Source: Psammoneis japonica (Eukaryota). Taken from it: 38,865 bases of DNA. How positions within the stretch are numbered: position 1 is the first letter of the stretch; each line of letters starts with the position of its first letter. The translations under genes were made by a program, and so were the position numbers. Location: the NCBI GenBank assembly GCA_008632985.1, contig QPGO01000003.1:930001-968865 (forward strand), read 5' to 3'. The notes below the pieces were generated by a model. The model had not been told where the DNA came from. It did not search any database and worked only from the letters and a program-made list of their open reading frames with translations. Positions 1-26,175 of this stretch are shown here, piece by piece.

Positions 1-546
1 ACACCTGTTCCCACTTTGGAAATGCCCCACTCTGCCACACTTGCCACTCATTGCACTCTTCATTGTCATCTGACACATGGTGTTTCTTTTTCATTGATCG
101 CACTGAGCATGCTTTTCTTCGCCCAGTCCTCCCATGGTCCTGCCCAGCCCATTCGCGCTTGCTGAACTTGCCATCTGCCATGTTTTTCCGCATCAGCCAT
201 GACACCTTGCTGCCACTTGCCATGTCCGCTTTCATGAGAAATTTTGCCTTTGGGAACAGCTCTCTCCGTGCCATCTCTTCCACCTCTCTCTTCAGCGATT
301 GGTGATCAGTGGCAGCCCCCAACCGCTGCAACACTGCTGTTGGCCTCGGGCCATTGGGCACTGCCTCTGCCCCTGCCGCATCCTTCTTTGCAGCTTTCTT
401 CCTCCTTGTTGACTCATTGCATCATTGTCAGTTCCTTCAGTTGCCAGAATCGTGTGGTGCAACAGGTCTTCAAAGGAAGACCGGCTTTGCACAATTTCAA
501 ACCTCTTTCTTGACACTCTGATGGTGACACTGCTTCCCCTCATCAT
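1..546 (-). pseudogene. Degenerate hypothetical ORF remnant running off the window start; probably an accessory gene of a transposon
   Basis: ORF 292..546(-) continues after a frame break into ...KREVEEMARRELFPKAKFLMK..., which looks protein-like. It lies in the TpA-depleted compartment. No family recognised. Confidence 0.3.
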
Positions 547-744
547 GCATTTTTAACTGGCATTTCTTTCCAAAACAATCACATTTGGCAATGTTCATGG
601 TTTTTTTTTTGAAAACAACATCCTTGGTTGCATTTGTTCAAATTCAAGAGATGAAATGTTCAGTTCAAACAGTGTGGTTAATTGTTGATGATGAACTTGA
701 CATGCAACTTGATTGTTGCATTTGAAACTTTTAACCACACAGAT

Positions 745-2030
745 TCATGCATGAACATCAATCCCTTTGAAGGGCTGAAGTTTGCACCCATGCACTCTTA
801 ACCTCTGATTGCTGCTTGGCGCCAAAATTGATCTCCAGTCCACTTCTTCCACAGCGTCCTCCTTGAAATGGACAATGACAAAATTGCTGCACCTTTCCTT
901 GCACGAGCAATCAGTCATGTGATCAAATGCATTTGTCACCTCACAAACACAACCAATGAAATGCTCGACATGATCATGATGGATCTTTTCTTTCTTCATT
1001 TTTAGATGATGTCTCCACCATTGTCTCTCCTTCTTGTCCCCACAATGACAGTTGGAATCCTCACCTGATTCCATTTTCTCAATGATCTCCAATGTCCAAT
1101 CATTGACCGCCCTTGGTGTCAATTCAAAGAACTCCAATTCATTGCACCGCCACAACCTGTGGGGTTTGTCTTGCATGAGTTGTTGCTCAAACAATTCCGC
1201 CAGCTTCCTGGCATCAAATGCAACACCCTTTCTCTCCACAACCAGTGAGTGCACACCTCCCAAACCATTGTCCAATGAAAGCAGTCCGCATCTCCCGCTT
1301 TGGTCCATTCCACAGGCAGGCAAGCCAATGGTTGAGTCTTCTCTCAATGCATCAACGTCTTGCTTGTCAATTGCCAAACAAAGCTTGCCCCCCCTTGACC
1401 CAGCAGCTAAAAGATCTAGCACCTCATTGTTGTGACAGTTGTTCGACCAAAAACGGTTTTCCTTGCCTGTCCGGGTGTGTTGCTGTTAAGCTCCAATGCT
1501 GCCGGGTTCTGTGAGCATTCCTTGCACGCTCAATGATCTCACTTGCATGCTCGTCATTGTTGTGAATGGAGAACATGGCGTGGGTGGCATGCATGTGTTC
1601 CCCCACTTCTTTGCTCCATTCCTGCATGTCCTCATGCACCTTGCTCATGATCCTGCCCTTGGTTTCCCACAATTCCTTCCATTTTTCCTTGACGGTTTGT
1701 TCTTCCCTCTCTGTGTTTTTCCAACAAATCTTCCAAATTCCATCAACAGATGGAGGGTCTTTGCCCAAGTCACTCCTTGAGATGCTGCTGCATGACCCAA
1801 TTAAACAAAACATGTCCATGCAGTCTCTTTGCAGGTGCGGGTCCCAGGAGTGTTCCTTCCTCCCCGTGCCAAACAAGCAACTTGGCTCTTCTCATCTCCA
1901 TCTTTTCTTCTTTTCTCTCTTGTTTCAGACTGTTCGCCTCTTCAAATTTCTTTGAGTGGTCATCAGGCCAGCGTGCCAGCAACAAATTGTTCTGGATGAC
2001 AGAATCCATGGTTGAACTGCAGGTCACTTG
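745..2030 (-). pseudogene. Degenerate, frameshifted hypothetical ORF (Lys/Glu-rich), divergent from the Plavaka-like transposase
   Basis: Chained minus-strand ORFs 1770..2027, 1424..1876 and 745..1422 have charged, protein-like composition and no Tyr. An AT-richer spacer follows at 550-745. Confidence 0.35.
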
Positions 2031-3941
2031 TCAAATTGTTGTGGTGCGGATGTTGCTCTTGATGCATTGAAACCATGCCAGCAGAGCCAACGGCCATGGA
2101 ATCACAGTTGTTTTTTTTACCGTGCATGCAAGGAAAAGAACTGACAGTGAGTGGTGACCACATTCCAACTCACTCTTTCCTTGGAATTGGCAACTCTCAC
2201 ATTGTCATCAATTGTTCAATCTGAAAGCATTTGATGACCCCAATGCATGCTTTTGACAGGGAACTGTGAAAGCACTCATTGATGCAAAGAAACAAATGAG
2301 CGCAATTTTTGCACCAATTTTGTGTCTTGTTTCCTGTTGCCCCTCACCACACACACCGTTTGCATGACCAAACCCAAGCAGGAACCATTTGCACCATTGT
2401 TCTCACCAATGCGCTGCTGTTTGTTGCCACAAAACCTGCAAAATGGAGCTGCTCAATTCCAACAATGAGGGTGAAGAAGCAACTGCCTGTCCTTGTTGCA
2501 AGCAGTCATTCCAGCGCATGCTTGGTCACTTAAATCGCAATCCACAATGCCTCTCTGTTGCTCATGAAATGGCAAACTTGGCGGGTCAAGATGCATCGTG
2601 ACCCGCCTTGTTTCCTGATGATTGAGTCAAAGTGGTTGGTCGGTGGAGCACCTCTGGGAATGCAAACATTTGGCACGGAAGTTCCAGGGGATTCAATTTG
2701 TCCTCATTGTCAAACGACACTTCCGCACATGGATTGAGACGATCCAGACAAGGAGCCTCTGTTTCCAATGTTTGCATGAGCAGTTCCACAGGGGCATCCA
2801 AACAACCATCTGACGCTCCATGGTCACCAGCATTCGAAGACAACATGTCCCCTCTCTCCTCCATCTGTGGCAAAGACAAGGACAATTTCATGTCACTGGA
2901 GATGCTTTCAGACAAAAGCAGCGATTCAGAAGCGAGCTCTTTTGCCGCACTTCCAGACATCACCATGGATTGCTCTGCCAACAATGAGGCAGATGATGTG
3001 CAATCATCTCAAGGGGATGGGTCCTCCCTGTTAGATGACAGCAGATTGGGCAAAATTTGCCAATGCCCAGCCGAGGTTGCCTTCACCGGCTTGTCATCAT
3101 TGAGCAACCCAAACAGGGCCTGTGCGGAGCTGAGCAAGCTGACAGATGACTGCAGAGCGCCGCTCCACCTGTGCGATGACATTGTCTCATTTGTCGAAGG
3201 GCGCTGCGGCATTGCATTCAAGCTTGGCACTAAAATGCCTTGTCGCGGTGCACTGATGGAAACTCTTTCCAAATCATTTCCCAGACTAGAACAAGAGATG
3301 ATCCCGGTCAACCTGGAAAATGCCAGTGGCCAATGTGGTGTGAAAACGGCAATGGTGCCACGATGGAACTTCAAAGAAGTGCGCCAATCACACATGTCAG
3401 ACACTCACACATGGGTGAAGAAAAGCAATCTTGCAGACCCAGCCCATCCTTTTGGCATGTGTGTTGCCAAGGGCTCAGATGACAAATGCATCTTGGCCGG
3501 AGAGTGGCACAGGAGCATGCATTTGGCTGGAGTCAAGGATCCACTGAAACAGTTCCTGGAAAGTTTGACAGTTTGTGTTGACAAGACAGCACAGACAGCT
3601 TTGATGGGATCTTCTTGTGGAGAATCTGTGACAGTGACCTCAGTGCATGTGGCTTTCAAACAGTGGCACAACAAGGCAAAGTGGCTTCTGCAGCCAAACA
3701 GCAGTCCAATGCGTGCAAGTTGGAAAAGGGGCAAAGTCTTCATGACCACCACAAGCTTTTAAAAACCACACTTCAGCCTCTGCTTGATGCAATGGAGTGG
3801 GGCGGCTTCAGGTGTCATGTGCAATGAGGAGATGAGATCCGTTCCCTGCATGTGATTCCAACCACAATCCTGATCAACGGGGGTGCAAAGAGTGGAGACT
3901 GCCCAGTGGGAAGGTGCGGTGCAAAGAGTTGTCATCAACGT

Positions 3942-4118
3942 TCATGGACTGGCGGCATCAGGACAATTTAATGGACATCTAGGACAGATGACAATCGTGT
4001 GCTAGATGAGAAAGAAAGTGAGCAAAGGAGAGATCATCGGATCTCTCCATGCTGTCTGTGCCAGTCTGCCAGTCTGTCCAACACAAGGGAGTGCACTCCC
4101 CATCTCGGATGTCTGTCA
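3942..4118 (-). repeat. 3' LTR (177 bp; carries an extra 8-bp CCAGTCTG duplication)
   Basis: Aligns end to end with 6406-6574. Confidence 0.9.
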
Positions 4119-4127
4119 CCCTCCCCT
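4119..4127 (-). promoter_or_regulatory. Polypurine tract
   Basis: AGGGGAGGG immediately upstream of the TG of the 3' LTR on the minus strand. Confidence 0.75.
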
Positions 4128-4147
4128 GATGAGCAATGCAATGCTCA

Positions 4148-6206
4148 TCAAGAAAAGAAGCGACAATCCAAATAAAATGAGAGGACCAGAACAGCAGAAC
4201 AAAGAAGAGCGCCAAAAGAAATGGCCAAGACTTGGTCCACAGACACAACAACAACCAACAATGATGTCCCATCAAGTGACGAGCATGTCGGGAATGAAAC
4301 ATCCACCCCGCGATCAACGCATCGGTCTTCGACAAAAAATGTCAAAGGCAGTTCCCAACAAATCTTTTGGATGAATTGAGTCATGCACCAAAGAACAATT
4401 TCGTCAATCCACAAACAATCGACTGCAATGGGACATTCTGGCAAGTCATCCTGTCGCCAAAATTCATCGGAAGAGATGGGGCCAAAAATTGGAAATCCAC
4501 CATTGCAAGTGACACGTTGAAAATGAAGCAACAGCATCCCACCTGGCAAACCAACACTTCTGCCACACTTTGTGTTGCCCTTGAAAAACACATTGGAGAA
4601 ACAAAATGCATCACAAAAAAGCTCAACATCAGAAGAACAGTGACGCATCACAGGTGAGGATTGCACGGCATTCAAAACATGGTCATCAAGCAAGGCATCT
4701 TGGTGGAAAGCAGAATTCTCAACAGCCTGACATGCATCCTCTGCGCCACAGGAATCCCTCCCCTGATCAATGAATGCAGGGTCATCATCGGGGATGGTCG
4801 ACAGGTCAGGAGTGCCAGGAAAAATGCCATTTGACACAACAATGGTCTTGACAGCAAAGGAAAGAGGTGACACTGGAAGAGTTGGTGTGATGGTCAAGCT
4901 TGCACACTTCCTCTGCACAATGTTGCTCCCTCCCTTGATCAGAAAAGGAAGAATCATCATCAGCAATGGTGGACAGGTCCGGAGCACCATGGAAAGTGCA
5001 CACACGACAACGGTCCTGACAACAGAGGAAAGAGACGTGGCAGCAGAAGGTGGTGAGACGCCGTGGCCCTCTTTCACAACCACCCTGCTTCTGTTGGTCT
5101 TGCTTGGACAACAGAAGGAATGACGGCATCACACATCTGAAATTGATGATGGCCAAACCAAAAATCCAAGTGCAAATTAACTTGACAACCAACAGATGAC
5201 AGTGGCGCATGGGTGGCAAGCAGCTTGGGTGCAACCTTGGCAACAGAGGGCAGTCCATCCTGGAGGTGAATGTGACCATCTTTGTGTGGAACAATGGGTT
5301 GGCCAGAAGCAAAAAAATTCAGGGTCTTGTGCAGGCAGGAGCAGACGTTGGCAGGAAGCACCATTGATTTGGCAGGAAGTTCGAGGGATCCAGCATCAAC
5401 AACTGCAGATGGCTTGTCCTCAGGCTCCACAACAGACACAGCAGACTTGACATTCAAGGAAGTGGTGTCCACAGGGTCCATCTGAGCATCCATGGCGAGT
5501 GCATCTGTGACATGAGATGCAACAGTGGCGCCAGTGTCACATGCAGTGGACCCAGCAACTGGGCACAATTTGCACTCAGTGTGTGCATGAGAAAGCAAAA
5601 AAATCTTCAACCCATTGGTCATGGCTTGCCTGTGCTCTTTTGGACCAGGTGAATGAGTGGCCAAGGTTTTGGCAAGATCTTCAGGAGTGGGTCCTGCAGT
5701 GGCAGATGACGGAGGTGAAGAACTTGGGGCAGACAATGAGTTTGGATGCAGGACATCAAGGATGTCATCCCAACAATCACAACACTGAAAACCAGGACGA
5801 AAATGGAGACGAGTGGTCCCAACATGTGTCGTTGTGGTGTCATGACCTTCCGAAATTGCTTTGATCATAGATTGGCAAGATTCAGACCAACCTGAGAACC
5901 TTGAGGAGTGGCCACAAAGAGAGGAGTCTTGTCTGTGAATGGTCCAATGCACGTGAGATCTTTGGTCAGTGCAGCTTGGGGAATGACAAGGTTCTGAACG
6001 ACCTCATGACAGAAAACAGCAGCGGCATTGCTCTTGAGGCCTTGAGGAGCAAATCCATCTAGAAGTTCTTCAGGAGCAGGCATCTTGTCGGAACAAAGGA
6101 CGCTCAGGCAATGATGGGCTTCAGGTGAGTGATGCTGAGGGTTGAACTCAACCAGCGTCGACTTGATCTTGGTCAAATCGACGGCAGCTTGGTTTTTGTT
6201 CACCAT
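4148..6206 (-). pseudogene. Frameshifted internal ORF of the LTR element; no RT, integrase or protease motif seen
   Basis: Starts MVNKNQAAVDL at 6206 and continues through ORFs 5074..5952, 4806..5312 and 4148..5083. Contains an internal duplication: FLCCQD...APDLSTIADDDSSFSDQGR / FLCCQD...TPDLSTIPDDDPAFIDQGR. Confidence 0.5.
4755..5060. repeat. Diverged tandem duplication, period ~175 bp, inside the LTR element ORF
   Basis: TCCCCTGATCA...TCATCATC...ATGGTCGACAGGTCAGGAG (~4759) versus TCCCTTGATCA...TCATCATC...ATGGTGGACAGGTCCGGAG (~4931). Confidence 0.7.
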
Positions 6207-6395
6207 GGTTGTGTGGAAAAAATCAAATTTCCACGTGGAGCTCTGGCATGTGTTCTGCGGTGGTCGTCCGATCACAAATCAAGAGGCAAAAAAACAGCTG
6301 CGACAATGATGATGATTTCAACAAAGAGAGGTTGCCAAGTCACACAACGGGCGTTGCAGCAGAGGAGCACAGAGGAAGAGGAACAGCGCACTGCT

Positions 6396-6405
6396 GCTCA
6401 CAACC
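6396..6405 (-). promoter_or_regulatory. Primer-binding site, tRNA-iMet anticodon-arm type (Ty5/copia style)
   Basis: Minus strand GGTTGTGAGC abuts the 5' LTR and matches the Ty5-type PBS GGTTATGAGC except for one TA->TG change. Confidence 0.7.
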
Positions 6406-6574
6406 TTGCAGACTGGCGGTGTCAGGACAATCTAACGGACATCTGGGACAGATGACAATCGTGTGCTAGATGAGAAAGAAAGTGAGCAAAGGAGAGATCA
6501 TCGGATCTCTCCATGCTGTCTGTGCCAGTCTGTCCGACACAAGGGAGTGTGCTCCCCATCTCGGATGTCTGTCA
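6406..6574 (-). repeat. 5' LTR (169 bp)
   Basis: Aligns end to end with 3942-4118. Confidence 0.9.
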
Positions 6575-6940
6575 AATGTTGCTCCCGTTTTTGCATGATG
6601 GGATGCAACGACCTTGACGACCCTTGGAAGGAATGCAAGCTGGTCCATGCTGGCAACTTGTTGCAAGTTCAGGACAAGGCCAATGACAAAAGTCTTGATG
6701 ACAGAAAGAGGAGTCACTGGAGGGAACAACTGCGCCACATGAAGCAACACAATGTTTCGACCAACAGCTTGCTGGGTGCGGACTTTGGCGAGCAACCATT
6801 TGGGGTCACTCTTTCCATGACCAGCGACATGATGCACCCACATGAAAATGACACTCTGAAAAGGGAGACAGGTGTGTTTGCAGACAGCATGACTGACTCG
6901 GTGAGAAGCGAGGCAGGGCGGGCTCCAGCCCCAGTGGCCG

Positions 6941-9900
6941 CCCGTTCTGATGTGACGACTTTCTTTGTGTGACATGTTACATCAATTTTCCAGTGAAAAA
7001 GTGTGTAGAATTCTGCTTTGATGTGACTCTTCATGTGCTTTTGTGCCAGCTTTCTGTGTGTCAGTCAATGTGTTTGGCTGCATTCCTGGGTGTGTCTGAT
7101 TTGTCACCACAGCGACCTCTGCAAAATCTCGATCGGATGTTGCGCCAAAAAAGCCAAATGCTTGGATCAATGCAATGAGGTTGAGGCAACAATGCAATGA
7201 GGTCAAAGGATGCAAATGGCGTTGAACTGTTTTTCTTGCACTTCTTCTGCCTTGCCCCACCTCATGCTGGGCCATCCACTGAGAGTGTTGAGCTCTCACA
7301 TCAGCTGTGATGTTGCCTTTCTTCTCACCATTGCACCTCACCATTTTGCACTCACTTTGCTTGTGCATGTCCAAGCGCTGGTCTGTCTTACAAAGGGGTG
7401 CACCACACCCAGAACAATGCCAACAAGTGACGCCCCTTGTGTTTTTGTTGCTGGCAGGTCCAACCAACCGACACATCCAACATGTTTTCTGGAGCACAGA
7501 TCCCGTGTGCCACTGTCCATGCTTTGTTTGCTCCTTCTTGGTTGCAGCTCTTGTTGTTGCACCGTCACTGTTGGCAACTCGAACGAGCTGAATGTTTTTG
7601 TTTGAATCGATGTGCCGAACCCCAGCAGCTGCACAGTGAGTGTCGTGCTCACTCAGTTTCTTGAGGTGTTTGCACATTGAGTCTGCAAACTTGCAAACAC
7701 TCATTTCACCACACTTGTTCTCATCATAATTTCGATGCATGTGGCGACAATCAATGATGCATTCACCTGTCAGAGTTGTCAGCAATTGGAGCCAGCAATC
7801 TTTTGCAGGCCGTGCTTTCTCCAGTGCAAGAATGGCCTGTCGTTGTTTGTTGTGTTCATCGATCAATGGCGGACATTCATGAATGAAATCCGCAAGCCTG
7901 GGACGCGGCAGCTCCTTTGATTCAATGCTTCCATGCTCATCTTTACAATTGGAAACATGGGGCTTGTCAGCTGGAAAAGTGAGACTGCAAGTGGACACCA
8001 TGTGCGCCACACTCGAGTTGCTCCAGGCATGCACCAACGCAACAATTGGTGTCTCGGATGTGGTTGTCGACACAACAACCCAATGACCCAAAAGATGCCC
8101 ACCGTCTTCACCACACCATGCCACTGAAATGTGCTCCAAGTGTTTCTTTGGGCAGAACTTGGCATTGTTCTTGACGATGAATGTTGAATGCGTGCCAAGA
8201 TTCTTGTGCAATTCTGTGCAAGATGGAACACTCCCAAACCAGGCATCTCCACCAACCCAGGAGACTGATTCTCCATTCTCACCTTTTGCACCCTCAACTT
8301 GCCAGAGGGCCTCAGCAGCATGAGCTTGCATGGGGGAGTCATCCGGCAAATGTGATTGTTCCCCAAACCATTTCTTTGCCTGTTGCTTTTCTGGCTGCTG
8401 AACAATGTCTTGGTGGATGAGAATCCCCGAGATGCACTCAATGCCATTTTTGAACATGGTGCCAAGTGGCACTGGCTTCCTCGGCTCAAAGGCACAATTT
8501 GGCAGGCCACCAAACTTTGAGGTGTGCGGCGTCCAAGCAGACATTGACTCACCCAACATCAACCGCACAACAGCCTTGAGCAGCGCCCAAGGCTTTTTGT
8601 TCATCGACATCATGCATGGCAAAAATGCATCCCATGGTGCATCACACTTGTCAAGATGCCAATGCTTTTTGTCCACCCATGCACACGTGGCAGCGCTCTT
8701 CCAACACTTGAACACCTTCATGTTGATGCACTGTCCAAAATCTTGGTGCTTGCTCAAGCCGTCTGATTGCCCTTTTTTCCACAAATTCTCTGCACCATTC
8801 TCAACCTGTGTCACACCAGCAATCAGAAGAGTGCAGCACTGCTTCACAAACCAATCAGGATCTTCCACCTTCTCGTCACAAAATTTTCGACCAAGCATCT
8901 TGTGAGTGTCATGATGCGGCACCCTTTCATCATCCAGGCACTCATCAACAATTTTTGCATGTCCTGTAACATCAGGGAAGAGATGCTCAAAGAATGCATC
9001 AACAATTGGATTTTCGAAGTTCACGTGACTCAACTTTGGGCCCGGCGTGGTTGGAACAGTGAACGGCGATTCGGTGATGCACTCCATCTCACCGCGCACT
9101 TTCCACACTGTCATTTGGTTGGTGCATCCCTCACGCCCATGCGGCATGCTCACGGATTCCTTCTTGGAGATCTCTTCATCTGCAAGTTTCAAAAAATCAG
9201 CAAGATGCTGCTGCTCCGGTGACAGTTTCTTGGGTTTCTTTGGGGGAGGCTCTGCATCATCAAACTCATCAAATGGCAACTCTTCCTTGCCATTCTTGAC
9301 AACTTTCACATTTTTGCTAACAACAAGCACATGTTTTTCATCCTCAGGAAGAATGTCAAAATCAATTTTCCACCCGGTGGTTGAATTTCCGGCTTTGATG
9401 GTTCCACAAAAAAGCACTTGGTTTCCTGCCACTTTTGGCATGCACTGCCTCTGTGTGTCTGTCACCAGGGCATGAAACAAGCAATGCCGTGTCACTTTGC
9501 ACCACTTGCCGATTCCCATTCAGCCACCGCCAGGGCCAGTGCACTTCTTGTTCTTTCTTGAAGTCATGGGATGTGTTTTTGAAGATTTGTTGCTGCCATT
9601 GCTTGCTGGTGGGCCCAAGTCTCCCTCATTGTTGTCATCGCGCTGCGCACGTGCTCCAGGAGACCTGTTGCGTTTTGCTGTTTGGGCATGTCACCTCTCT
9701 CCAAAGTTGGGGCTGCATGAGTTGTCGTCAAAGGAGGTGGAACAACTGTGTCAGGTGGAGAAACTGGTGAATGAGCTTCAACGGGGCCGTCGGGAGCATT
9801 CACGTCGGACGTCATGGTTGATTCGAGCAAAAAAAATTTGTTGGACGCACCATGAAAGCGGCACGATGACATCAACAAAACCTTGCAAGATTCTGAAGTT

Positions 9901-11695: not shown

Positions 11696-14600
11696 TCATT
11701 CGTCAATGAACAGATCCAGAAAGCACCTGGGCCATCCGCCAAGGCAGCTCTGCCAATTTGCCATTCTTCTCTGGAAGGAAAAGAAATTAAATGGCTTCTT
11801 CTGGTCATGACTCTGAAACTGCTTGAGGAATTCTAGGACATGGTCCCTTTCTGTTTCTGAAAGGGAGGCCCAAATTTCCTGTTCCGTGACACCCAAATGC
11901 AGGGCTTCCTGGTTGGATGGTTTTCCAAGCCAACCCCCCCTGTCCTGCTCTGCAATTTCAAGGGATGACTGGCAAATTGTGACTTTGTCCATCACCATTT
12001 CGTGGGTCATGCATTGAATCAGCACATGTTCTTCTGTGTGCTCCAAGTTGCGCACGACTTGGGTGAGGGACCACAGGTTGCATGGGACTGTGATGCGACA
12101 CCTTTCAAACTTCGGATGCAACAATGATTGCATCATCTCTTTCAGGTTTTTGCAGAAAAAGCGATTTCCAAAAGACGTCGGCTGCCACTCCCCACGTTGC
12201 ATTCAGCAGCAGTCCATGCAAATCTGAGCAAATCCACTCTGCTTAAAATCAATCTCACTGCCAAATCGTGACTTCATGTGATTGACAAAATCCTTGGCAG
12301 AAATGTTGCAATTCAGGTGGTGGGTGGCACTTCCATCCTGCAGAGAGACAGTGTGCACCTCAACAGCAGCGTTTGTGTGGAGGTCCTCTGCAACTTGACA
12401 CCTTGCCTCATCTCTGTGTTTGCCACAGCCTCCACCCCACAGTCAGAACAAAGCTTGTCATGGGACAGCTCTGCTGCATTGACAGGCCTCATCATGCACA
12501 GCCACAGGATTTTGGTGCTGCCGTCTTGATTGGGGAGCATCAAAAAAATTGAAACAAGAGTCTCACATGAGCCACAACCACAGTCGACAAACGAGTCAAA
12601 CAGAACAATGAGAAAATGGAATGTGACAATGTGAGACTTGTGCTAAAGTTGCATCCATGCATTCACTCACATCCAGATTGGGATTTTGTGTGAGGTCAGG
12701 TGCCTTCGCCCGAGTGTTGGTTGCATCAACAGACACCTCCTCATCATCCAGAGTGATGATGGGTGCGCAGCAATCCAGTTCGTCACATCCGTCAACCCCA
12801 TGCAACAATTGGTGACTTGTGGTCTCTGCTCCCTCACTTTCTTTGTTGAGGGAGGATTCTTCCATCAAGGAGTTTAGTTCATTGTCTGCCACAAGTCCAT
12901 CATGTGTCAAGGATTCGTCCATGTCTGATGCTCCCTGCAACAAGTTTAATTCATTGTCAGCTGCAAGTCCATCATGTGACAAGGAATCCTCACTGTTGGA
13001 TGCTCTAGACCAGGAGTCCAATTTGTTGTCAGCTGCAATTCCATTGTGAATCATTGCAACTTTTTGCTTGCACAGGTTTGGGTCAGAGTCAACACACTCC
13101 ACTGTTTGGTGCTCTGTCAATCCACAGGGCTTGTGCAGACGCTGACCTGGGGGAGAAAATGTGAACAGGTCTTGCCCTGAACATGGACCATGGAACACAC
13201 AATTGAACATGTGGGTGCAGCGATTGTTGGCATTCTCACAAAGTTTGTGCTCTGTTCTGTTCCAACCATGCTCTTTGGTCCCGGTCTCCAATGACATCCG
13301 TTGGTGCATGAGCAGCTGTTCTTCTGGGTTGATGTGGGCCAGTTAAGTGGCAGCTCCAGAATTGAAGACAGGATGCACCATGTTGTTCAAATGCGGGTGG
13401 TCCTTCACTGCAACACTGGACAGTGCAAGACAATGCAGCACCAACATGAGATGAATCTTGCTGAAATCTGCTCCCCGGTGTGCTCAAACATCACAGGCAG
13501 CCTTGCAGTGTTGTCCCATTAAATTGGGACAGAACTCTTTTGTGATCATGTGTTTGTTGATCCAGCCAAAGCAGTGCTGCACAGATTTCATCAACCACAA
13601 GGTCGACTGGGTTGTTCGTGGTGCTGGTGCACCTGTCATCAACAAAAACCTCACCAAACTTCTTGCAGGTCAAATTGGCAGGGCCAATCCCACCCACCTG
13701 TGGGTCTCCAAACAACACGCCAAATTCATTCATCAAGCAATTGGCAAATTGCACAAATGGGTCCGCGCCTTCACAACACAGGTTGGGCAGGCACTTGTCC
13801 CCAACATGGCAGAAGTGGTGGCATCCCGTCAGACAACCGGCAAGGACAGCCAATCTTGTGACTCATTTTGTGGGTCAGGCCCAGATTGGCACACAATGTT
13901 CTTGAAACAGTGCAGAACTGTGGCTGGGGCAGACAAGTGAAAGTCCCTGATGGGGAGTGCAGGGAACTTCAACCAATCCATGTGCACATGGGGGATGTCA
14001 CCACCTCTGCCAATGACAACATTGTTCCACGGCCTGCTGTCATTCAGCAAGAGATGCTTGAATGCACTGGAGGACAGTGGGAAGTCAGGATGGGTGGGAC
14101 CAATGTGTTGCAGGTCCATGTCTTGAAGCACAAAGTCAAGCTGAGCTTGATTGTGTTGCACCCAAGTCAGCATCGGCTTCACATCTCACCTGTCATCACA
14201 GCATTGACCGATGTGACTTCTGCCATTGGTGACTGCCTTGAAGGACTGCCAAAGGCATCCACAACAAAGAAACAACTGGCGGCTGTTTTCCCACAGGTGC
14301 AGTTTTTTCCATCAAAGTGTCCATCACAGAATTGACCACGGGACACGCACAATCCCTGCATGGTGACGTCCTCCCGTTTGAAATGCAGACAACCCATTTC
14401 ATCGCACAATGCTTTCAAATGCTCCTTGCACCAAAGCAACCAGTTGAACGGTGGAGGATTGCTCAGTTTCCAAAGCTCCACCTCATTCTTGCAAAGCTGA
14501 GTCAAGTTGAGAATGTCTGCAACCATGGCCTTGATTTTGGATGACTCGTTGGAGTCAAAGTTTTTGTCAGGCTCGAAAACATCAAGACCACACGTGGCCT

Positions 14601-16600
14601 TGGGTTTAGCTGATTTGGTGGAGCCAGGCTCCTTTGGATGATGCAAGCACCCAGCACAGCTGAACTTGATCCTTCATCTGTCTTTGGACTCAACGGCAAG
14701 CGATCTGTCACGTTTTAGATCAGACTCGCCCTTCAACAAAATAAAAAGCAAGAGGGTGGGAATGCACACATGAAGGCAACCAATGTGCCCTTTGCACAGA
14801 GAGTTGGCTTGTTGGGCAATGGAGAGTTCCTCCAAGCAGTGATCCAGGTGAGGAGGGCACTCAGCTCTGACACAGGAGGCGGTGGTGGGATTGCTTGTGG
14901 GAGTTTTGTTGGAAAAGATGTGCCAGTTTTCCCTCAGGTTGTCTGCAAGGCAAAAGTCAGCAGCGGAATGGCGCAGCACATGCTTGGTGTTGGTCGCCTT
15001 GTCAATGATGTGAAGGCATGACACATGGGCAGCAACTTCCTCTGAGGCAACAGAACAACACTTGGACGGGTCAAAGTGCTGGCAGAGAGTGGACTTGTCC
15101 AGCCACGACATGTCGTTGGGGTCCAGTGGAGGAGACAATGCAACCGAGCATTTTCCGGCAACAACTGGCCAAGAGGTGGGCAGCTTGGAGGTGGGACCTT
15201 TTGAGGAAGAAGGAGATTTTGCCGAATCTGCAGTTTCTGACAAAGGGGAAATGTTGGCGCAGTGAGAGTGCAGTGCACCTCCCTGGATGACAGCACATTG
15301 CCAGACAATGGAGGACGTGCTGGGTTTGAGTGTGATGCAGGCCTGGACTTCTTGTTGTGGACAGTCAAAGAAGGCTCTTGTGGTGTGCATGATGACAACA
15401 GGAGAAAAAATGGACAAATGAGAAAAAGGATGCACACAGGAGGTGAAGGAAAAAGGGCACATGCTGTCACACAAACAGGTGTCATCTTTGCGTGTCCTCC
15501 TGATGTTGCGTTTGGTTTTGGATTGATGCTCTCATTTGTTGTCATCATCCATGCAGTCAGCCCTCTGACCACACATTCTGCAACAAAAAATTGTGAGCAA
15601 TTTGCTGTGCTTGGGTTGTGTGCCAGGTTGCTCCTTGGGACAGCGCTTCCCAAGTTCATGATTCAACGTGCAATTGATTTTTTCTTCGTGCACCTCCCAA
15701 CGGGCAAGGGAAGCACCTGCCAACATCACAGAGTTCTTTGTGTTGCTGATTTTGTCTGGTGTGAGGAATTCCTTGACATTGTCTGCCTGGGATCCCGGGC
15801 AGTTAGAATTGCACAAGACTGGAAAGCTGTCAACAAACATGCACCACTCCTTTTGGGCATTGACATGGCAAAAATCTGCACAAACCAACAGTCAAAGTCA
15901 TTTGGTTTGTGCTGGACATGACACATGACGATTTTGGTGACAAAGCATGCACTGTGAAGGTCTTGTGCACGGTCGTTGATCAATTCTTGGAGGTTTTTGC
16001 ACCGTAAAAAACGGAAACAAGGCTTGCTAGAAACAGGATCATTTGGGTCGTCACCAGCAATGATCATGTGAACAAATTCTACCATGGCTTTGATGCTGCG
16101 GTGAAGTTGCACGAGGTGCTCCTCTTCTTCAACTGTCTCTCTGGGCAACTTTTGGAGAAATGGAGAGCTTCCTCCAAATTTCGATGATGAAGGACATGCT
16201 CACCTTTCAGCGCACGGGAATTCTTCAGGGACCAACCATGAGTCTGGATGCAAGACCAAACATCAGGGCAGCCAAGAGTTTTCCTGATGATGTTGTTGGT
16301 GCAGATGACTTCCATGACATGTGGAATTCAACACAACTTCAGCTTGTGGCAAAGGAAGGGAAGAGTGAGAAATTGCAGAGAGGGAGTCCATTTTGTTGTC
16401 TCCAAAAACTGCTGTTTGAATGCACACATTGAAATCAAGCTTTTGAGCTTGGGACCAAACAACTCCATTCCAAAACCATTGGCAAAATGTTCTGTTTCAT
16501 CAAAATCAACCTCATTGGGAAATTGGAAGGAAGGGTCAGGGTCAACCTCATCGCGGGACGGGGTGAAGTCGTTGATGACCGCCATGGCAAGAAGTCAGTT
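11696..16600 (-). pseudogene. Very large (~4.9 kb) frameshifted ORF of unknown function, copy 1
   Basis: Chain of minus-strand ORF pieces: 16328..16585, 16079..16315, 15726..16148, 15532..15888, 14674..15474, 14179..14646, 13829..14182, 13491..13853, 12596..13309, 12313..12543, 11696..12202. The 13790-16527 part is collinear with the 673-aa ORF of copy 2. Confidence 0.55.
12869..13048 (-). repeat. 72-bp (24-aa) coding tandem repeat, ~2.5 copies
   Basis: HNGIAADNKLD / HDGLAADNELN / HDGLVADNELN; the His codons begin at 13048, 12976 and 12904 on the minus strand. Confidence 0.85.
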
Positions 16601-17470: not shown

Positions 17471-17579
17471 TCACTCATGAGAAGGCCAACTTGCTGCATT
17501 GAGAGCCTGTCACCCCCTCTCCCCATTGCCAGATGTCTCCATCAATGTTGTGGATTGAACTTCCCCTTCCAGGAATGGA

Positions 17580-20361
17580 GACACTTGTCCCTGACACAGT
17601 GGAAGTGGCAGTGTTCTGTGGGACAACTGGCAAGAATCGGCAGTCTCATGACTTGTTTTGGGTCTGGCCCAGATCTGCGCACAATGTTTTTGAAGCAGCA
17701 GAGCACTGTGACTGGAGCCAACAAATGAAAGTCCCTCACAGGGAACAAGGAGAACTTCAGCTGATCCATGTGCACATTGAGAAGTCCTGTCTTGCTGCCA
17801 CTGCCAATCACAACATTGTTCCATGGCCTTTTGTCATCCAGCGAGAGATGCTTGAATGTGCTGGCAAAGAGTGCGATGTCAGGATGGGAGGGACCATTGT
17901 GTTGCAGGTCCAAGTCTTGAAGTGCAAAGTCAAACTGAGCACAATTGTGGTGCATCCAAGTCAGCATCAACTTCATGTCAAACATGTCATTGCAGTGTTG
18001 ACCAACGGGACTTCTGCTGTTGGTGACTGCCTTGAAGGACAACATCTTGCCACATGTGTCCATGACAAAGAAACAAGCTGCGGCTGTTTTCCCACATTGA
18101 CACCAGGTGCAGTTTTTGCCGTCAAAGTGTCCATTGCAGAATTGACCACAAGATGTGCAAAATCCCTGCACAGTGACGTCCTCCCGCAGGAAGTGCAGAC
18201 AGCCCGATTTGTCACACAAAACTTTTGAGTGCTCCTCATGCCAAAGCAAGAAGTTGAATGGTGGCGGATGGCTCAGTCTCTGGAGCTCAACCTTGTTTTT
18301 GCAAAGCTGAATCAAGTCAAGAATGTCTGCCACCATGGCCTTGATTTTGGAGGACTCATTGGCATCAAAGATTTCATCAGGATTGAAAACATCAAGACTG
18401 TGTGTGGCCTTGGGTTCAGCTGATTTGGTGGAGCCAGGCTCCTTTGGATGATGCGACTGCCCGGCATGACCAAACTTGACCCTTTGTCTGTTGCCAGACT
18501 CAACTGCAACCGATCCATCTTGTTTTGGATTTGACTCACCCTTCAGCAAAATGAAAAGCAGAAGGGTGGGAATGCATGCATGAAGGCACCCAAAGTGGGC
18601 TTTGTGCAGAGTGTTTGCTTGTTGGGTGATGGAGATTTCCTTCAAGCAGAGATCCAGGTGAGCAGGGCACTCAGCTCTGACAAGAGAGGTGGTGGTGGGA
18701 TTGCTTGAGGGAGTTTTGTTGGAAAATGTGTGCCAGTTTTCCCTCAAGTTGTTTGCAAGGTAAAAGCCAGCAGCGGAATGGTGCAGCACATGCTCAGTGT
18801 TGGTGGTGGCCTTGTCAATGATGTGCAGGCGTGACACATGGGCAGCAACTTCCTCTGAGGCAACAGATTGACACTTGGACGGGTCAAAGTGCAGGCAGAT
18901 GGCAGACTTGTCCAGCCACAACATGTCATTGGGGTCTGGGGGAGGAGACAAAATTTCCAAGCAATTTGTGGAAACACCCAGCCAAGAGGAATGCCATTTG
19001 GAGGGAGGACCTTTGAGGGGAGAAGAAGATTTTGCCAGATCCATGATTTCCAACAAGGTGAGGATGTTGATGGCAAGAGCACGGTGCACCTCCCCAGACA
19101 ACATCACATCACAAGATGCCAGAGGAGGTGCTGGGTTCAAGAGTGACTTGGTCTTGACCTTCTTGTTGGGGATGGTCAAGGAAGGCTCTGGCGGGGCACA
19201 CAAAGTCAAAGGATCCATGAGACAACAGATGCACACAGGCAGCCAGTGAAGGCAAAGGGGGAGGGGGTGCTTGCCATCATGCAAACAGGTGCCATCTTTG
19301 TGGGTCCTCCTGATTTTGTTTTTGTGGGTCCTCCTGATTTTGCACTTGGTTTTGGATTTGCAATCTTGTTTGTTGTCATCATCCATGCAGCCAGCCCTCT
19401 GATCATGCATTCTGCAATGAAGCATTGTGAGCTGCTTCCCACACCTGCATTGCACACCAGGTTGCTCCTTGGGACAGCGCTTCCCAAATTCATGATTCAA
19501 CATGGAATTGATTTTTTCTTCGTGTGCCTCCTGATGGGCAAGAGAATTGCCTGCCATTGTCACAGAGTTCTCAATGTTGCCAAGTTTGTCTCCTGGGAAC
19601 CCCTTGTTGATCTTGTCCTCCTGGGAAGCCAGTTCACTGGAATCACATGTGACAACAAAGCTGTTGATGAACAGACACCACTCCTTTGGGTGTTGACAGG
19701 TGAAACATCAGCATGAACCAACAGCACATGTCCTTGGGTTTGCACTGGATGCAGCGCATGACAATTTTGGTGACAAAGCATGTGCCGTGAAGGTCATGTG
19801 CTTGGTCATTGATCAATGCTTGGAGATTTTTGCACTGCAAAAAATGGAGACAAGGTTTGCCAGAGACAGGGTCATTTGGGTCATCACCGGTGATGATCGT
19901 GTGCACAAAGTCCACCATTGCCTTGATGTTGCGGTGAAGCAGCATGCGGTGCTTCTCTTCTTTTTCTGTCTCTGTAGGAACTTTGGAGAAATGGAGAGCT
20001 TCCTCCAAATTTTGATGTCAAAAACCACATTCACCTGCTTTCAGCATGCAGGACTTCTTTGTGGACCAACCACGAGTCATGATGCAGGACCAAATGTCTG
20101 GGCATCCAAGAGTTTTCCTGACAATGTTGTTGGTGCGGACAACTTCTGTGACATGTGGAATGCAACGTGACTTTGGCTTGTGACAAAGGAAGGGCAGAGC
20201 AAGGAACTCTGGAGAGAGGGACCAATTCATTGTCTCCAAAAACTGCTTTTTGGATGCACGTGTTGAAACTGTTCTTTTGAGCTTGGGTCCAAACAACTCC
20301 GCTCCAAAGCCATTGGCAAAACACCCCAACTCATCAAAATCACACACATCAGGAAATTGGA
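17580..20361 (-). pseudogene. Large unknown ORF, copy 2 (diverged direct repeat of ~13790-16527)
   Basis: ORFs 17542..19563 and 19643..20008 align with copy 1 (e.g. HHPKEPGSTKSA.PKAT, GQFC.GHFDGKNCT, RPWNNVVIG, GDDPNDPVS.KPC). Carries a private 24-bp tandem duplication at 19297-19342. Confidence 0.75.
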
Positions 20362-20803
20362 CGTTCAATGAACCATGGCAGTTGGGTGCGGGGCAACCAC
20401 ATGCTGGTGTCATTTGTGAGGGAGGCAGCAGATGTGATGTTGGAGGAAGGGAGGCATTGGTGGAGTTCAAGGTTGAGTTGTTTGAGGACAATGCTGAGAA
20501 CTGGTGCCACAAAAGGAGAGGCAAGAGGGCGTCCTTGGCAGAATCCTTCGGGTTGAAGGAAGGAATGCCATGTGCTGGTGGGGTCTCAATGCCAACATTC
20601 ATTGGGAGCATTGCAGAACAGGTCAAAAAGGTGCAGCAGGTGTCAGAATTGGGGGATGTCATTGAGTTGTTGGCAACGGCCTGTTCCAGCTCCAGGTGAT
20701 CTGCGCGGGTTCGATTCCCATCATTTGGCAATTTGTGCATTCAGCGCATTGAACTTTTTCAAAATCCATTTTTTGCCAAATCGAAGGGCAAGTGCACACT
20801 TTG

Positions 20804-21258
20804 CTTGTTGAGGTCATTTGGGTCTTTGTGAAGGGCAATGAAGCAGTTGGAGGAGAGGATGGCGTGCATGTCAGGAGGGATGGAGTTGGTGAGCAGGAGG
20901 AGCAGAAGGTCACGGAAGGCCAGGAGATGGGGACGGATTTGTGTCATGGTGGGTGCAGAGGTTTTGAAAAGTGCACATGCTTTGAGCAGGTCCATTGAGT
21001 CTGCAAAAGGTCCAGCCACAGTTGCTGGTTTGCATTTGCTCAGTGCCGAGAGTGGGTTGTCTTCAGAGATGTCAGGTGTGCCGGAGGAGGAGGGGGATGA
21101 CGGGTGTTGTGAGTGTTGGCTGTTGGATGATGTTGGATGTGGGGTGGGTGCAGAGATTTGATGACTGCAATTCTGTTTTCATCCACAGCAGCAATGGGGA
21201 GGTTGGATGTGACTTGATGGCAGGCAACTAAATTGTCCCAAGTCACCATGGCAGCCAT
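20804..21258 (-). mobile_element. Degenerate fragment of a CRE-like non-LTR retrotransposon related to the element at 33236-38865
   Basis: AGPFADSMDLLKACAL...RPHLLAFRD..LLLL.NSIP...SNCFIALHKDPNDLNK aligns with AGVFADSTDLFKSCAL...RPCLSSFRE..LLLLHGSIP...SNYFVALHKDASDLNK. TSNLPIAAV...IKSLHPP aligns with TSALPVAAV...ILKLYPP. Confidence 0.85.
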
Positions 21259-21459
21259 GTTGCAAGTGTGGCAATGATTTTTTCAGCAGAAAATCACGAG
21301 CCATTCTGGCCAAATTCAAGCCAAAAAGGAGCAACTGATCACTCTCAATCCTGCACAACTGGCAGGAAAAATTGTTTGCCACGCAAAAGGCCAAAGTAAA
21401 AGACCAAAACACAAGCAATGAGACATGACAAGCAAGTTGCACATTCAACAACATGCACA

Positions 21460-23300
21460 CCCATTGTGACAACTCCGTCCTCCTGACAAGCGACCCCACA
21501 ATGAAACCCTTGTCAAAGTCAGTCACACTGGGGTGAGCTTTGAAATCCTTGACAAGTTTTTCAATTGCTTCCAGAGACATGGCATCCTGCTTGATCTCTT
21601 GAGAGGCACCAGGCTGTGAAAAAACCATGCAAGCACAAATGTGTCATTGAGCACATCAAGACAACTTGCGGATTCTCTTGGCAGTGAGTGCATCGGCCAA
21701 CAATTGTTCTTGCACCAGCACTCTAAAGTTCTTCTTCCCCCTTTTCCTTGACAAAGGCAGCAGATGACAGCATTGCTTTGCCAATCCCCAGGACCATTTG
21801 TCTGTGCCCTCCGCAGCCATTTCTGGATGACCCTTGGGCATTCGATTGACTGTCACACCCATTTTTTGACCCATCATTTGCAACAATGTCTCCTCATTCA
21901 TGAAATCATCACAGGCAAACATCAAGTGTGGCAGAGATGTGGACTCATCAATCTCACCATCTTCACCTTTTGCTCCATCCATTGTGTGCTCACTGGTGGG
22001 GTTGTTTGGATCAATGAATCCAAGCTCACACAAAATTTGCTTTAAGCCTTTTCCTGGCTTGCAGCACCATCCACACTTCACTTTTTGAACCATTTCTTCT
22101 ACAGGCACATTGCCAATCTTGGCTGCATCACAATCAACTCATCCTTTTTCTTGCCCCTGATGTTCTTGATGTTCTTTTGAAGGAGTTTTTCATGGAGTTC
22201 AGGGTGCAAAAAAAACTTCTGAGTTTCAGTTTCTCCTGCAACAGGTGTGTCATGCTTCTGGGCTTGTCGTTGCTCCAGTGTCATCCAATGTGGTCCATCA
22301 TCATTGTTGCCAAAAAGCATTGTCTGTGCTGACCCTGCAGATGGCATGCCAACAGCCTCAGCACAAGGGCCTGAAAGCCCTCTGCCCAGAGAACATCAGT
22401 GGGGTGCATTTTGCTCTGGTCACTGCCAACTTCTGCATTCATCGCACATTTGTTGTAAATCAGTCTGCTGGCTCTCTGCTTGTCATGCCTGCAAGAATGG
22501 TCAAAGAGGAAATGACAATCAAGCTGCAGATGCATGACCTTCAAACAATCAACACAATCCTCCAGCTGGGCCAACATGTGGTTGTGGTTCCAGCAGCCTT
22601 CGTTGTTCACTCCATGCTCAAACTCTTGAAGAAATGGGCTCTCAGTCAGTTTTGGCTTCTGTTGCTTTTTGCCAAGTGCCACTTCTGCAGCTTCTTCATT
22701 GGTGCAGCATTTGCCTGCATGAGTTGCACTCATCTCCTCAAGCTTCTCTTGTGTCACATCAGCATCATGCATGAGGCCAACCTTGCAGCACTGGAACAAG
22801 GACTCCATTGTGCCTTCACCATCATCTTTTGGCATCAGAGGTCTTTTGCCATTGGGGCCTGACCAAGATTTTGTGCTGAGCAAGTTTTGCTTTAAAATGG
22901 CTTTGTCTTGTCCAAAGATCAGAGCTGGCTTTTCGTTTGGGTCCTTGCACACGCTTTTGCTCCCCCCAAATTGCACAAAACACTCTGTCTCATTTCAGCC
23001 GTTTTTCCTTTGAAATTTCCAAAATGCCCCGCAAAACAAATTGCGGTGATTGGTGTTTCCCAAATGTGGGTGTCAGCTGTGGCAAGAAATGTTGTCCCGC
23101 CTTGAGTCATGTCAACTCTCCTCAAGAATTGTCGTGCTGTCTGGAGTTGTCTCGTCGTTGTGTCTCAAATGGTGTTGTCTCATTGTTGTGCTCTGTTCTC
23201 AGCAAAAGGGAGCAGCAGCACTTGTGGATGCAACAACATTTGGGGGAGCTCTCAATGTCTCATCCATTTGACAGGATGAACAATTTTGCCTTGAAGGCAT
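21460..23300 (-). mobile_element. Dead IS630/Tc1-mariner-related DDE transposase (long-insertion type); the element may extend to ~24,300
   Basis: GQD(K)A..KQ...SW....RPLMPKDDGEG.M; EHG..NEGCW...M..QLEDCVD; FLFDHS..H; KGLKQILCE.G; DFMNEETLL; PKGHPEMA.EG...WG.AK; IEKLVKDFKAH...DFDKGF. Multiple frameshifts. No TIRs found. Confidence 0.7.
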
Positions 23301-24613
23301 TGTCTTGCACTGGAGGTCATTGAGAAGAAGTTGCAGACATCTGAATGATGGCTGGCTTTCACAACAATGAACAAGGTGGGAGTCAAAGCTCGAGGAAGGA
23401 TTGCAAGTGCAACAGAATTTTTTGAGTCTCTGGACACAATGTGATGTGTCTCAGTGTGAAGCATGTGTGAGACATCTTGGTCTCATCTGCTGCTGTGTTG
23501 CATGCCAAGAAAAGGACACAAACACTGCCAAGTAAAGGACACAAACACTGTGGGGTGTGCTGGTGTGGCACGCAAATGTGTTTCTCTGGAAAGCAGCAAG
23601 CTGGTGCATGAGGAAGAAGCAGCACCAGTGCAAGCAGTGTGGATGGCAAGACACTGGGAGAGGCAGTGCCATCATCATGGCATTTGCCCAGATTGGGCTG
23701 CAACTCACATGAAGTGACACACATTTCAATGTGTCTGCTTGGCGAAACTTCGTTTGCTGCAATCACGAAGGTTTTGTTCCCATCTGCAATCTTCTTGTGA
23801 AAACAAAACAGTGCCCACGCATCCATGGACTCACAGTCCTCTTGTGCAGGTTTTGTCCAGTGCTCCTTGGGTCTCATTTTTTGATCCTCCGTTGTCGAAC
23901 CACCGCAGCAGTTGGGGCGTTTGTCACAATCAAGAGCAGCCCAGCACGAGCACAGGCGCACAAGGAGAAATGAGCAGGCGGCAAACACGAGCTCAGACCA
24001 ATCTTCCTCTGATGGCACTTCTGGAACAGTTTTGTTTTGAACGCTCCAAATGACACCATGAATGGCTTCCAAAGCTGTGATTTGCCCAGGCTCAAGACGA
24101 GTGCTTCAAGCATCTGAGCTCACAACGACCATCTGGCACACGCTGACACCACAAACACCTGAACCATGGCCTGCTCCAACAGGTGCAAGAACATGGACAG
24201 GGGAAACAATTGAGAAAAAAGATGCCCAAGAAGGCATGACAGTCATCTTGAAAACTGAACAGAATGAAGTGGGACATGGCGCCATGTCAAACGACCATTT
24301 TTTGAAATGGTCAAAAACGTGCGTGACCATCCCGCCTTCGTTCCTCGCAACGAATTCCACGTGGAGATTTTGAAAACTTGCCACCGATAACCTTCCATCG
24401 ATCATCATGCGTTTCCAGTTTCTGCTCGCATCGCGATTTTCTCGTTTCTCGTCCATCATCATATCATCAACCTTGGCTCACTGTCTCTGCAATCCAAACA
24501 CAAAGAGCCACCGGCATTTCACTTTGTATCGGTATTGAAAGCACTACGATTCTCGAGCTTGGTGTCTCATTATAAGCATCAAAAAGTTCTCGAGAAAGAA
24601 TTGGAATAGAAAA

Positions 24614-26083: not shown

Positions 26084-26175
26084 GCGAGCTAAAGGACGAG
26101 AAATCAATAATTTTTGGATTCAATGATTCTTGGTGCTATAAGGATTTTATACACGGTTCCATGCGTCCCTAGGAA

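Follow-up and report, generated by a model that had tools for sequence, protein, structure and literature searches.

Flank-dependent loss of TpA from transposon-filled DNA in a contig of Psammoneis japonica

We analysed a 38,865-nucleotide stretch of Psammoneis japonica DNA (assembly GCA_008632985.1, contig QPGO01000003.1, positions 930,001 to 968,865 of the forward strand; hereafter the window), in most of which the dinucleotide TpA is almost absent. An earlier reading of the sequence (the original prediction) had proposed that the few TAs left between 540 and 23540 reveal the target motif of a mutational process. The window holds transposon-filled DNA poor in TpA and CpG, host genes and a LINE-like (long interspersed nuclear element) sequence, arranged as follows (window coordinates; obs/exp, observed over expected count).

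1 to 24250, no strand: main TpA- and CpG-depleted compartment, 67 residual TAs; per-kb obs/exp 0.00-0.10 for TA, 0.09-0.58 for CG and 1.6-1.9 for TG/CA
6982 to 9519, minus strand: piggyBac-like transposase open reading frame (ORF) of 845 aa, Pfam DDE_Tnp_1_7 at E 0.0017, tyrosine erased
13868 to 16487, minus strand: copy 1 of an uncharacterised repeat family, paralogous to copy 2, reading frame broken, 77-83% identity to 17656-20321
17545 to 19707, minus strand: copy 2 of the same family, a 721-aa ORF with 90 homologues at E<=1e-3, the best at 9e-79
24251 to 26934, no strand: host-gene control block, per-kb obs/exp 0.33-0.60 for TA and 0.90-1.02 for CG
24786 to 25517, plus strand: thioredoxin-like gene, Pfam E 2.9e-7
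26179 to 26913, minus strand: TRAPP subunit gene, Pfam E 4.5e-37
26935 to 29045, no strand: second depleted block (2.1 kb), an insert in the intergenic stretch that separates the TRAPP gene from the methyltransferase gene, with 5 residual TAs
29046 to 33000, no strand: host-gene control block, per-kb obs/exp 0.39-0.67 for TA and 0.93-1.11 for CG
29529 to 30791, minus strand: methyltransferase gene, Pfam match
32526 to 32933, minus strand: SnoaL-like gene, Pfam match
33250 to 38865, minus strand: LINE-like element with a 1243-aa reverse-transcriptase ORF, RVT_1 at E 2.2e-8, TA obs/exp 0.22-0.62

Mapped in 200-bp steps, the depleted DNA comprised 1-24250 and 26935-29045 (26,361 bp with 72 TAs) and was thus wider than the interval 540-23540 to which the original prediction referred. 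It was compared with the genic DNA of 24251-26934 and 29046-33000 (6,639 bp with 239 TAs). TA obs/exp was 0.04 in depleted DNA and 0.56 in genic DNA; the corresponding values were 0.30 and 1.02 for CG and 1.75 and 1.19 for CA/TG, at G+C contents of 0.483 and 0.492. The density of TA in depleted DNA was 7.6% of the genic density, and the transposon-filled DNA has lost about 93% of its TAs, to TG or CA. The borders of the depleted DNA were sharp: they could be placed within about 100-200 bp, and those of TA and CG coincided. On the right, the main compartment ends between the TAs at 23533 and 24388. In the second block each 200-bp step contained 0-1 TA and 0-6 CG, against 5-12 TA and 8-16 CG immediately outside. 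The four host genes all sit in blocks with normal TA and CG content.

The depleted DNA is filled with mobile elements. The piggyBac-like ORF has 144 homologues at E<=1e-5, the best with 43% identity over 87% of the query; among the 120 homologues listed, the best named relatives come from Seminavis and Thalassiosira. It is single in the window, where tblastn placed it at 7288-9654 only. The repeat family was harder to detect. A word-indexed protein search with a 673-aa ORF returned nothing, and an exhaustive search carried out afterwards returned the 90 homologues; in that search of a 1.84-billion-protein library, the best homologue of the 721-aa ORF had 45% identity. None of the 10 top homologues of this ORF carried a Pfam family, and a metagenome scan for its relatives gave 40 pattern matches, 0 of them confirmed. 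We also examined sequencing depth, using contigs from one DNA run of the one sample that was found to contain the stretch. Summed contig depth, which is not a copy number, was 289-948 over 17545-19707 and 130-5294 over 10.3-23 kb, compared with 34-59 in the single-copy parts (piggyBac and genic DNA). This suggests that 10.3-23 kb consists of high-copy repeats. The piggyBac copy, at single-copy depth, was depleted as much as the repeats. Two smaller repeats lie in the same compartment: a 122-nt direct repeat (3947-4068 and 6411-6532, 96% identity), much younger than the other duplication, and a 72-nt unit in two tandem copies (12855-12998, 76-82% identity). The residual TAs at 6433 and 6467 are copies by descent, through the 122-nt repeat, of those at 3969 and 4003, which leaves the results below unchanged.

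The direction of the change could be read from the encoded proteins. ORFs in depleted DNA contained 0-0.3% tyrosine and 7-13% cysteine plus histidine, whereas the genic methyltransferase contained 2.4% tyrosine; the piggyBac ORF had 0.1%, against a mean of 3.3% in its 120 homologues. A MAFFT alignment of this ORF to 50 homologues out of the 120 listed had 23 columns with a tyrosine majority, at which the ORF showed histidine (10), cysteine (6) or another residue (7), and tyrosine in none. In the repeat family, aligned with 32 homologues, 12 such columns gave six histidines, four cysteines, one tyrosine and one leucine. Histidine or cysteine therefore occupied 26 of the 35 tyrosine-majority columns overall (16/23 for piggyBac and 10/12 for the repeat family). 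The paralogue pair told the same story at the DNA level. Its 2,733 aligned columns contained 431 transitions and 188 transversions, and 110 adjacent swaps between TG and CA made up 220 of the transitions, while 1000 column shuffles gave 8.3 +/- 2.7 and never more than 19 (a 13-fold excess). Such swaps arise where the two copies have resolved an ancestral TA or CG in different ways; a hand estimate based on the remaining CG sites assigns about 44 of the 110 to CG and the rest to TA. Three further TG/CA swaps were seen against other genomic copies. The loss of TA is mutational, from TA to TG or CA.

These results bear on the possibility that nothing has mutated, the TA shortage being a native composition, the outcome of selection against TA, or an artefact of assembly or base-calling at modified bases. 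TA is under-represented in many genomes, and reaches only 0.56 in the genic DNA here. Conserved tyrosine columns that now read histidine or cysteine, and swaps at 13 times their shuffled number, argue against this explanation, as does the exact agreement of k-mer contigs: seven listed contig pieces from a public DNA run covered 8,493 nt of depleted DNA with 0 differences, although the run may be the assembly's own sample and so not independent. We give the non-mutational explanation scarcely any credence. None of the residual TAs was touched by a variant among the 40 listed of 160.

We then examined which TAs remain. There were 67 in 1-23540, all at 554 or beyond, and every position that the original prediction had named was correct within one base (TTAA at 554, 679, 732 and 22893; CTAG at 1417, 3980, 6060, 11834 and 13006). 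With Y for pyrimidine and R for purine, YTAR accounted for 43 of the 67 (64%; TTAA 19, CTAG 9, TTAG/CTAA 15), in agreement with the claim that this class makes up about two thirds. Most others were, again as described, GTAA/GTAG (13) or TTAC/CTAC (7), with four at ATAA/ATAG; ATAT, ATAC, GTAT and GTAC each numbered 0, and so did YTAT. Over all 72 TAs of the depleted DNA there were 44 YTAR, 28 mixed (RTAR or YTAY) and 0 RTAY, compared with 36, 130 and 73 among the 239 genic TAs. The residual classes are therefore not proportional to the genic background (chi-square 70.2, p 5.6e-16, three classes), and RTAY is the most depleted class, more so than YTAR (Fisher p 2.4e-10 for RTAY and 1.1e-13 for YTAR). 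A runs were intact, as had been noted, with AA/TT obs/exp of 1.23 in depleted and 1.16 in genic DNA. Because AA/TT is undepleted, general mutagenesis by DNA polymerase eta at WA (A-to-G at both TA and AA) is an unlikely source; the original prediction had argued against it too.

To express the effect of each flank, we used a half-site model in which the loss exponent of N1-TA-N2 is the sum of a term for N2 and the same term for the complement of N1, with a Poisson fit. Expected ancestral counts were obtained by applying the genic TA fraction to the Y-R dinucleotides that the depleted DNA itself contains in the same flanking context. The loss exponents, by the base 3' of the adenine, were 0.06 for A, 1.10 for G, 1.88 for C and 3.67 for T; with a context-blind (uniform) baseline they were 0.63, 0.97, 1.77 and 3.31. 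Under the two baselines the additive model accounted for each of the 10 strand-collapsed classes (deviance 7.7 and 9.9 with 6 degrees of freedom, p 0.26 and 0.13), so the two flanks act independently. A uniform rate was rejected (likelihood-ratio test 141-150, p about 1e-30), as was a model that distinguished only purine from pyrimidine (p 9e-11 and 3.7e-4 for the two baselines), and the excess of T over C was significant (likelihood-ratio p 2.5e-5 and 3.4e-4). The order of loss is thus T > C > G > A. Its last step is the least secure, since the difference between A and G depended on the baseline (p 1.5e-8 versus 0.07), as genes contain few TTAA (6 in 6.6 kb).

Protection extended beyond the first flanking base. 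Of the 74 surviving TAA half-sites, 43 read TAAA (p 7e-8 relative to the pool by Fisher's test), and TAGA made up 26 of the 42 surviving TAG half-sites. TARA is protected: an A two bases downstream lowers the loss, a feature that the original prediction did not include. The survivors therefore lie at junctions of T runs and A runs.

The residual pattern might instead reflect where TAs are created, if C-to-T at CA or G-to-A at TG occurred mainly in Y..R and A-rich contexts. Some creation does take place. At least one residual TA is new: that at 7944 results from a G-to-A change in a Glu codon invariant in 50 of 50 homologues, which after a T now reads as a Lys codon. The TA at 7727 may likewise have been created by C-to-T, to judge from a His-majority column that is now Tyr. 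A model of equilibrium between creation and destruction also kept the same order, with relative destruction rates of 1 : 2 : 5.6 : 39 for A, G, C and T. It fitted less well (deviance 15.5, p 0.017, against 7.7-9.9 for the survivor model). Moreover, source words were plentiful in each class (254-915 TG plus CA) and RTAY was still 0. Two residual TAs look like survivors from their place at conserved codons: the TA at 18761 belongs to a Tyr codon at a column with Tyr in 23 of 23 homologues, and that at 7389 spans a conserved Cys (49/49) and a Lys-majority position (22/49). Lastly, the partly depleted LINE-like element, in which many TAs are left, showed the same class order. Creation bias is therefore quite unlikely to explain the pattern; the residual TAs are a mixture of survivors in slow contexts and of fresh G-to-A or C-to-T mutations that last only in such contexts.

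In the LINE-like element ATAT numbered 0 against 10 expected, and TTAA 6 against 2.9 expected. Its class-wise depletion correlated with the exponents fitted in the saturated DNA at Spearman -0.61 (p 0.06) over the whole element and -0.75 (p 0.013) in 36001-38865, values to be read in the light of the skewed composition of the element. It is possibly an early stage of the same process. The skew itself is pronounced: purines make up 68% of the plus strand of 33001-38865 (G 2291, A 1697, C 992, T 885; GC skew about 0.4, AT skew about 0.3), 41 of the 100 TAs in the element are GTAG, and Ser, Leu and Pro are abundant in the minus-strand reverse-transcriptase ORF.

The strand on which recognition takes place is a separate question. 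Since the loss of N1-TA-N2 sums both strands, a rule that reads 5'-TAY-3' and one that reads 5'-RTA-3' give identical survivor counts, and recognition of the duplex tetramer RTAY yields the same counts again. The products do discriminate, because TAY predicts that YTAY becomes YTGY and RTAR becomes RCAR, while RTA predicts the reverse. We measured the excess of RCAR over RTGR in depleted relative to genic DNA, scaled by the loss of RTAR, with a bootstrap over 500-bp blocks. The index was 0.60 (95% interval 0.14 to 1.05, P(<=0) 0.005), a split of about 80:20 in favour of TAY, and for RTARA it was 1.33 (95% interval 0.45-2.63).

Several results leave a TAY rule less than secure. The bulk signal came from GTAR (1.13), while ATAR, at 0.20 (95% interval -0.67 to 0.84), was not significant although TAY predicts the largest effect there, and the whole test depends on the 6.6-kb genic baseline. 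Individual sites were evenly divided. Tyr codons preceded by a pyrimidine, for which TAY predicts Cys, had become Cys in 7 and His in 6 cases (3:3 in piggyBac and 4:3 in the repeat family, states common to both paralogues being counted once); after a purine, a context for which neither product is favoured by any model, there were 7-8 Cys and 11-13 His. At nine sites with the TA kept in one paralogue, four showed the product that TAY predicts, four the opposite one, and one was uninformative. A single Ile-majority ATA before G had become ACA, as TAY predicts, with two other, doubtful cases at Val-majority columns; we give these codons little weight. The polarised tally over sites was about 12:10. 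Discordant paralogue sites were left out of this estimate, as TA and CG ancestors are inseparable there.

The bulk test and the site-level tests both exclude an RTA rule of strong asymmetry. Its TAY counterpart is partly supported, being favoured by the bulk test and unsupported by the sites. The claim of the original prediction that 5'-TAY-3' is the preferred substrate thus stands as far as the order TAT > TAC > TAR goes, which the half-site model recovered; TAY as such cannot be read from survivors, and the products are split. We regard a single-strand 5'-TAY reading as a serious possibility, a little short of an even chance, and an RTA reading as very unlikely.

The even split at single sites would be expected if recognition occurred at the level of the duplex, the whole tetramer setting the susceptibility of TpA and either adenine being changed about equally, with no single-strand TAY motif. 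Alternating R-T-A-Y would then be the easiest sequence to open or bind, and junctions of T runs and A runs the hardest. Site-level events near 50:50 (Cys 7 : His 6 and paralogue sites 4:4) suit this explanation, the survivor counts fit it equally, and protection that extends to the second flanking base on both sides is what a structural property of A tracts would give. With every RTAY class empty, additive and multiplicative effects of the flanks are inseparable. The surplus of RCAR relative to RTGR described above is not what a symmetric process would yield. We consider duplex recognition possible, though less likely than the TAY reading.

The modified base could also be thymine. As TpA is self-complementary, T-to-C in RTA on one strand alters the same base pair, and in the same way, as A-to-G in TAY on the other, and every count would fit equally if a T-modifying enzyme of the thymine hydroxylase kind marked the T of 5'-R-T-A-3', which was then copied as C. 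In some protists modified thymine clusters at TpA, and thymine in oxidised form mispairs with G. On the other side, in the main text of a preprint on hypermutation in Bigelowiella natans (bioRxiv 10.64898/2026.01.13.699255), the only data from living lines are read as adenine deamination, likewise without proof. Modification of thymine seems to us unlikely.

From these results we favour, as rather probable, the explanation that the depleted blocks are silenced mobile-element DNA subject to a locus-restricted, near-saturating change of TpA to TpG or CpA, together with CpG decay, at a rate that depends on the flanks. The blocks, a piggyBac-like transposon and high-copy repeats, would be part of the nuclear genome of a diatom-like eukaryote and silenced. 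The change is an A:T to G:C transition at TpA only, alongside the CpG decay. On either strand the order of loss by the base 3' of the adenine is T > C > G > A, with the flanks acting separately; because this order holds on both flanks, RTAY, the alternating purine-pyrimidine sequence, is lost first and YTAR, chiefly TTAA and T-run/A-run junctions, last. The depletion, its borders and direction, and the order and independence of the flanks are seen in the sequence itself; the agent is a matter of inference. It would be an enzyme at work on the DNA of chromosomes within silent chromatin, in the simplest case an adenine deaminase for which 5'-T-A-Y-3' on a single strand is the recognised motif, and the process would be of the same kind as the one live in mutation-accumulation lines of B. 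natans.

Two observations speak to the place of action. Decay of CpG within shared borders points to the state of the chromatin, which presumably is silent and carries methylation; 5-methylcytosine decay would account for the CG obs/exp of 0.30 and for part of the CA/TG excess within those borders, and is incapable of removing TpA. The process probably acts on DNA in place, judging from a single-copy piggyBac DNA transposon as depleted as the repeats and from B. natans lines that mutate resident DNA. Residual CpG was flank-dependent too: its density relative to genic DNA was highest at GCGC (0.63) and CCGC/GCGG (0.49), and lowest at ACGC/GCGT (0.16) and at TCGA and TCGC/GCGA (0.19).

The spared neighbourhood also tells something of the host. 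Among the best named relatives of the methyltransferase were diatoms (Chaetoceros, Thalassiosira, Corethron and Seminavis) and the raphidophyte Heterosigma, at 50-66% identity. Protein searches with the methyltransferase and the transposase gave no match near 100% identity, in a database from which the organism's own proteome is absent. Rfam and tRNA scans gave 0 matches, and Pfam scans of the window showed no deaminase gene. Within the first genic block, 200 bp at 25401-25600 (TA 1, CG 6, TG+CA 40) resemble a small depleted islet.

The flank rule (TAT > TAC > TAG > TAA, TARA protected, flanks independent) provides a fingerprint that any candidate enzyme must reproduce, and it can be checked directly against the 231 published de novo mutations of B. 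natans. That a diatom-like genome carries the signature at saturation suggests that the process is widespread among marine protists; if so, it would shape their transposon landscapes. There are practical consequences as well. Because TAA and TAG are gone, depleted DNA has an excess of long open frames: by hand count it holds 51 of the 74 stop-to-stop frames of at least 130 aa, among which Pfam scans gave a believable family match for the piggyBac frame only. Gene callers would thus over-predict genes there. Family detection is weakened too, because the encoded proteins lack Tyr, as illustrated by a piggyBac Pfam E of 0.0017 despite 144 homologues. Such elements would be recovered by a 'de-mutation' step of the kind that deRIP provides for fungi.

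The closest known system is that of B. natans, a chlorarachniophyte. The main text of the preprint (bioRxiv 10.64898/2026.01.13.699255) reports that two integrated viral regions, of giant-virus and virophage DNA, received 231 of the 302 new mutations; that 230 of these 231 were A-to-G or T-to-C, all at TpA; that only some lines were affected; and that the mutation rate in the living lines was raised about 1000-fold. It describes 124 TpA-poor clusters elsewhere in the genome, defined by a shortage of TpA and an excess of CpA+TpG (cut-offs 0.43 and 1.52) and containing DDE transposase and reverse-transcriptase domains, and its authors propose an ADAT2-like DNA deaminase. In both systems TpA alone is hit and turned into TpG or CpA, in mobile or foreign DNA with local borders, while host genes are spared, and the window exceeds both cluster cut-offs (TA 0.04 versus 0.43, CA/TG 1.75 versus 1.52). 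The differences are in lineage, since two proteins of the window have diatoms as their best named relatives, with no Bigelowiella among the named entries of the 120 listed; in extent, the window being near saturation (TA obs/exp 0.04 versus a Rho of 0.45 in the nucleocytoplasmic large DNA virus region); and in targets, which here are transposons and repeats, with CpG depleted within the same borders. A term search found no flanking-context analysis in the main text of the preprint, though its supplementary mutation table S2 could hold one. Full-text literature searches gave no other report of TpA hypermutation, and none in diatoms. New in this window are the lineage, a loss at saturation, transposons as the targets, the link to CpG decay, and the rule of the flanks.

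ADARs act on RNA, and ADAR-like editing of double-stranded RNA, fixed by reverse transcription, would deliver elements already mutated. The sharp borders are what such pre-mutated inserts would show. ADARs usually favour a 3' G, however, and TAG is among the slow contexts here. A DNA transposon is fully affected, along with non-coding flanks, which makes RNA editing and retro-copying unlikely, and the CpG decay within the same borders points to a chromatin state. Like the change at TpA, ADAR hyper-editing produces clusters of A-to-G and prefers a U 5' of the edited A (discussed in bioRxiv 10.64898/2026.01.13.699255); the B. natans mutations described there arise in resident DNA during vegetative growth. 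We consider an origin in RNA extremely improbable.

The deaminases TadA, ADAT2 and ADAT3 share with the process a U or T 5' of the edited A, and they are single-strand readers. Counting against a deaminase, none of the preferences compared fits T > C > G > A. The analogy with TadA drawn in the original prediction is weak: as given in PMC11472039, the TadA core motif is UACG, with Y favoured at -2 (YUACGAA), yet in the depleted DNA TAT disappears faster than TAC (p 2.5e-5 and 3.4e-4) and YTAC survives well (TTAC/GTAA 16, CTAC/GTAG 7). Fungal mRNA editing by ADAT2/3 (Tad2/Tad3) is described as preferring UAG (PMC11087585), while the exponent of TAG was 1.1 against 3.7 for TAT. The amphioxus ADAT2 (BjADAT2) is described as deaminating DNA with a preference for GAA when it acts on A and TCG when it acts on C (PMC10354150); AA is not depleted here. 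Nor do the results lend support to the link with eukaryotic 6mA at ApT that the original prediction raised.

The window finally invites comparison with repeat-induced point mutation (RIP) of fungi, described in PMC2621366 as changing C to T, mostly at CpA, and so creating TpA. Both are defence-like, locus-restricted transition hypermutations of mobile DNA that follow a dinucleotide rule, erase reading frames and leave a trace in dinucleotide indices. The direction is opposite, TpA being destroyed here and CpA/TpG made (TA 0.04, CA/TG 1.75), and the piggyBac copy affected here is at single-copy depth. A chromatin-targeted genome defence that deaminates adenine in DNA, common to Rhizaria and a diatom-like stramenopile, is a broader proposal that we hold to be doubtful. 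Such a system would in effect be fungal RIP in mirror image. If true, its enzyme would be a natural editor that converts A to G in chromosomal DNA by a defined motif, and its own specificity (5'-T-A-Y-3', with TARA refractory) would set it apart from TadA, ADAT2/3 and ADAR.

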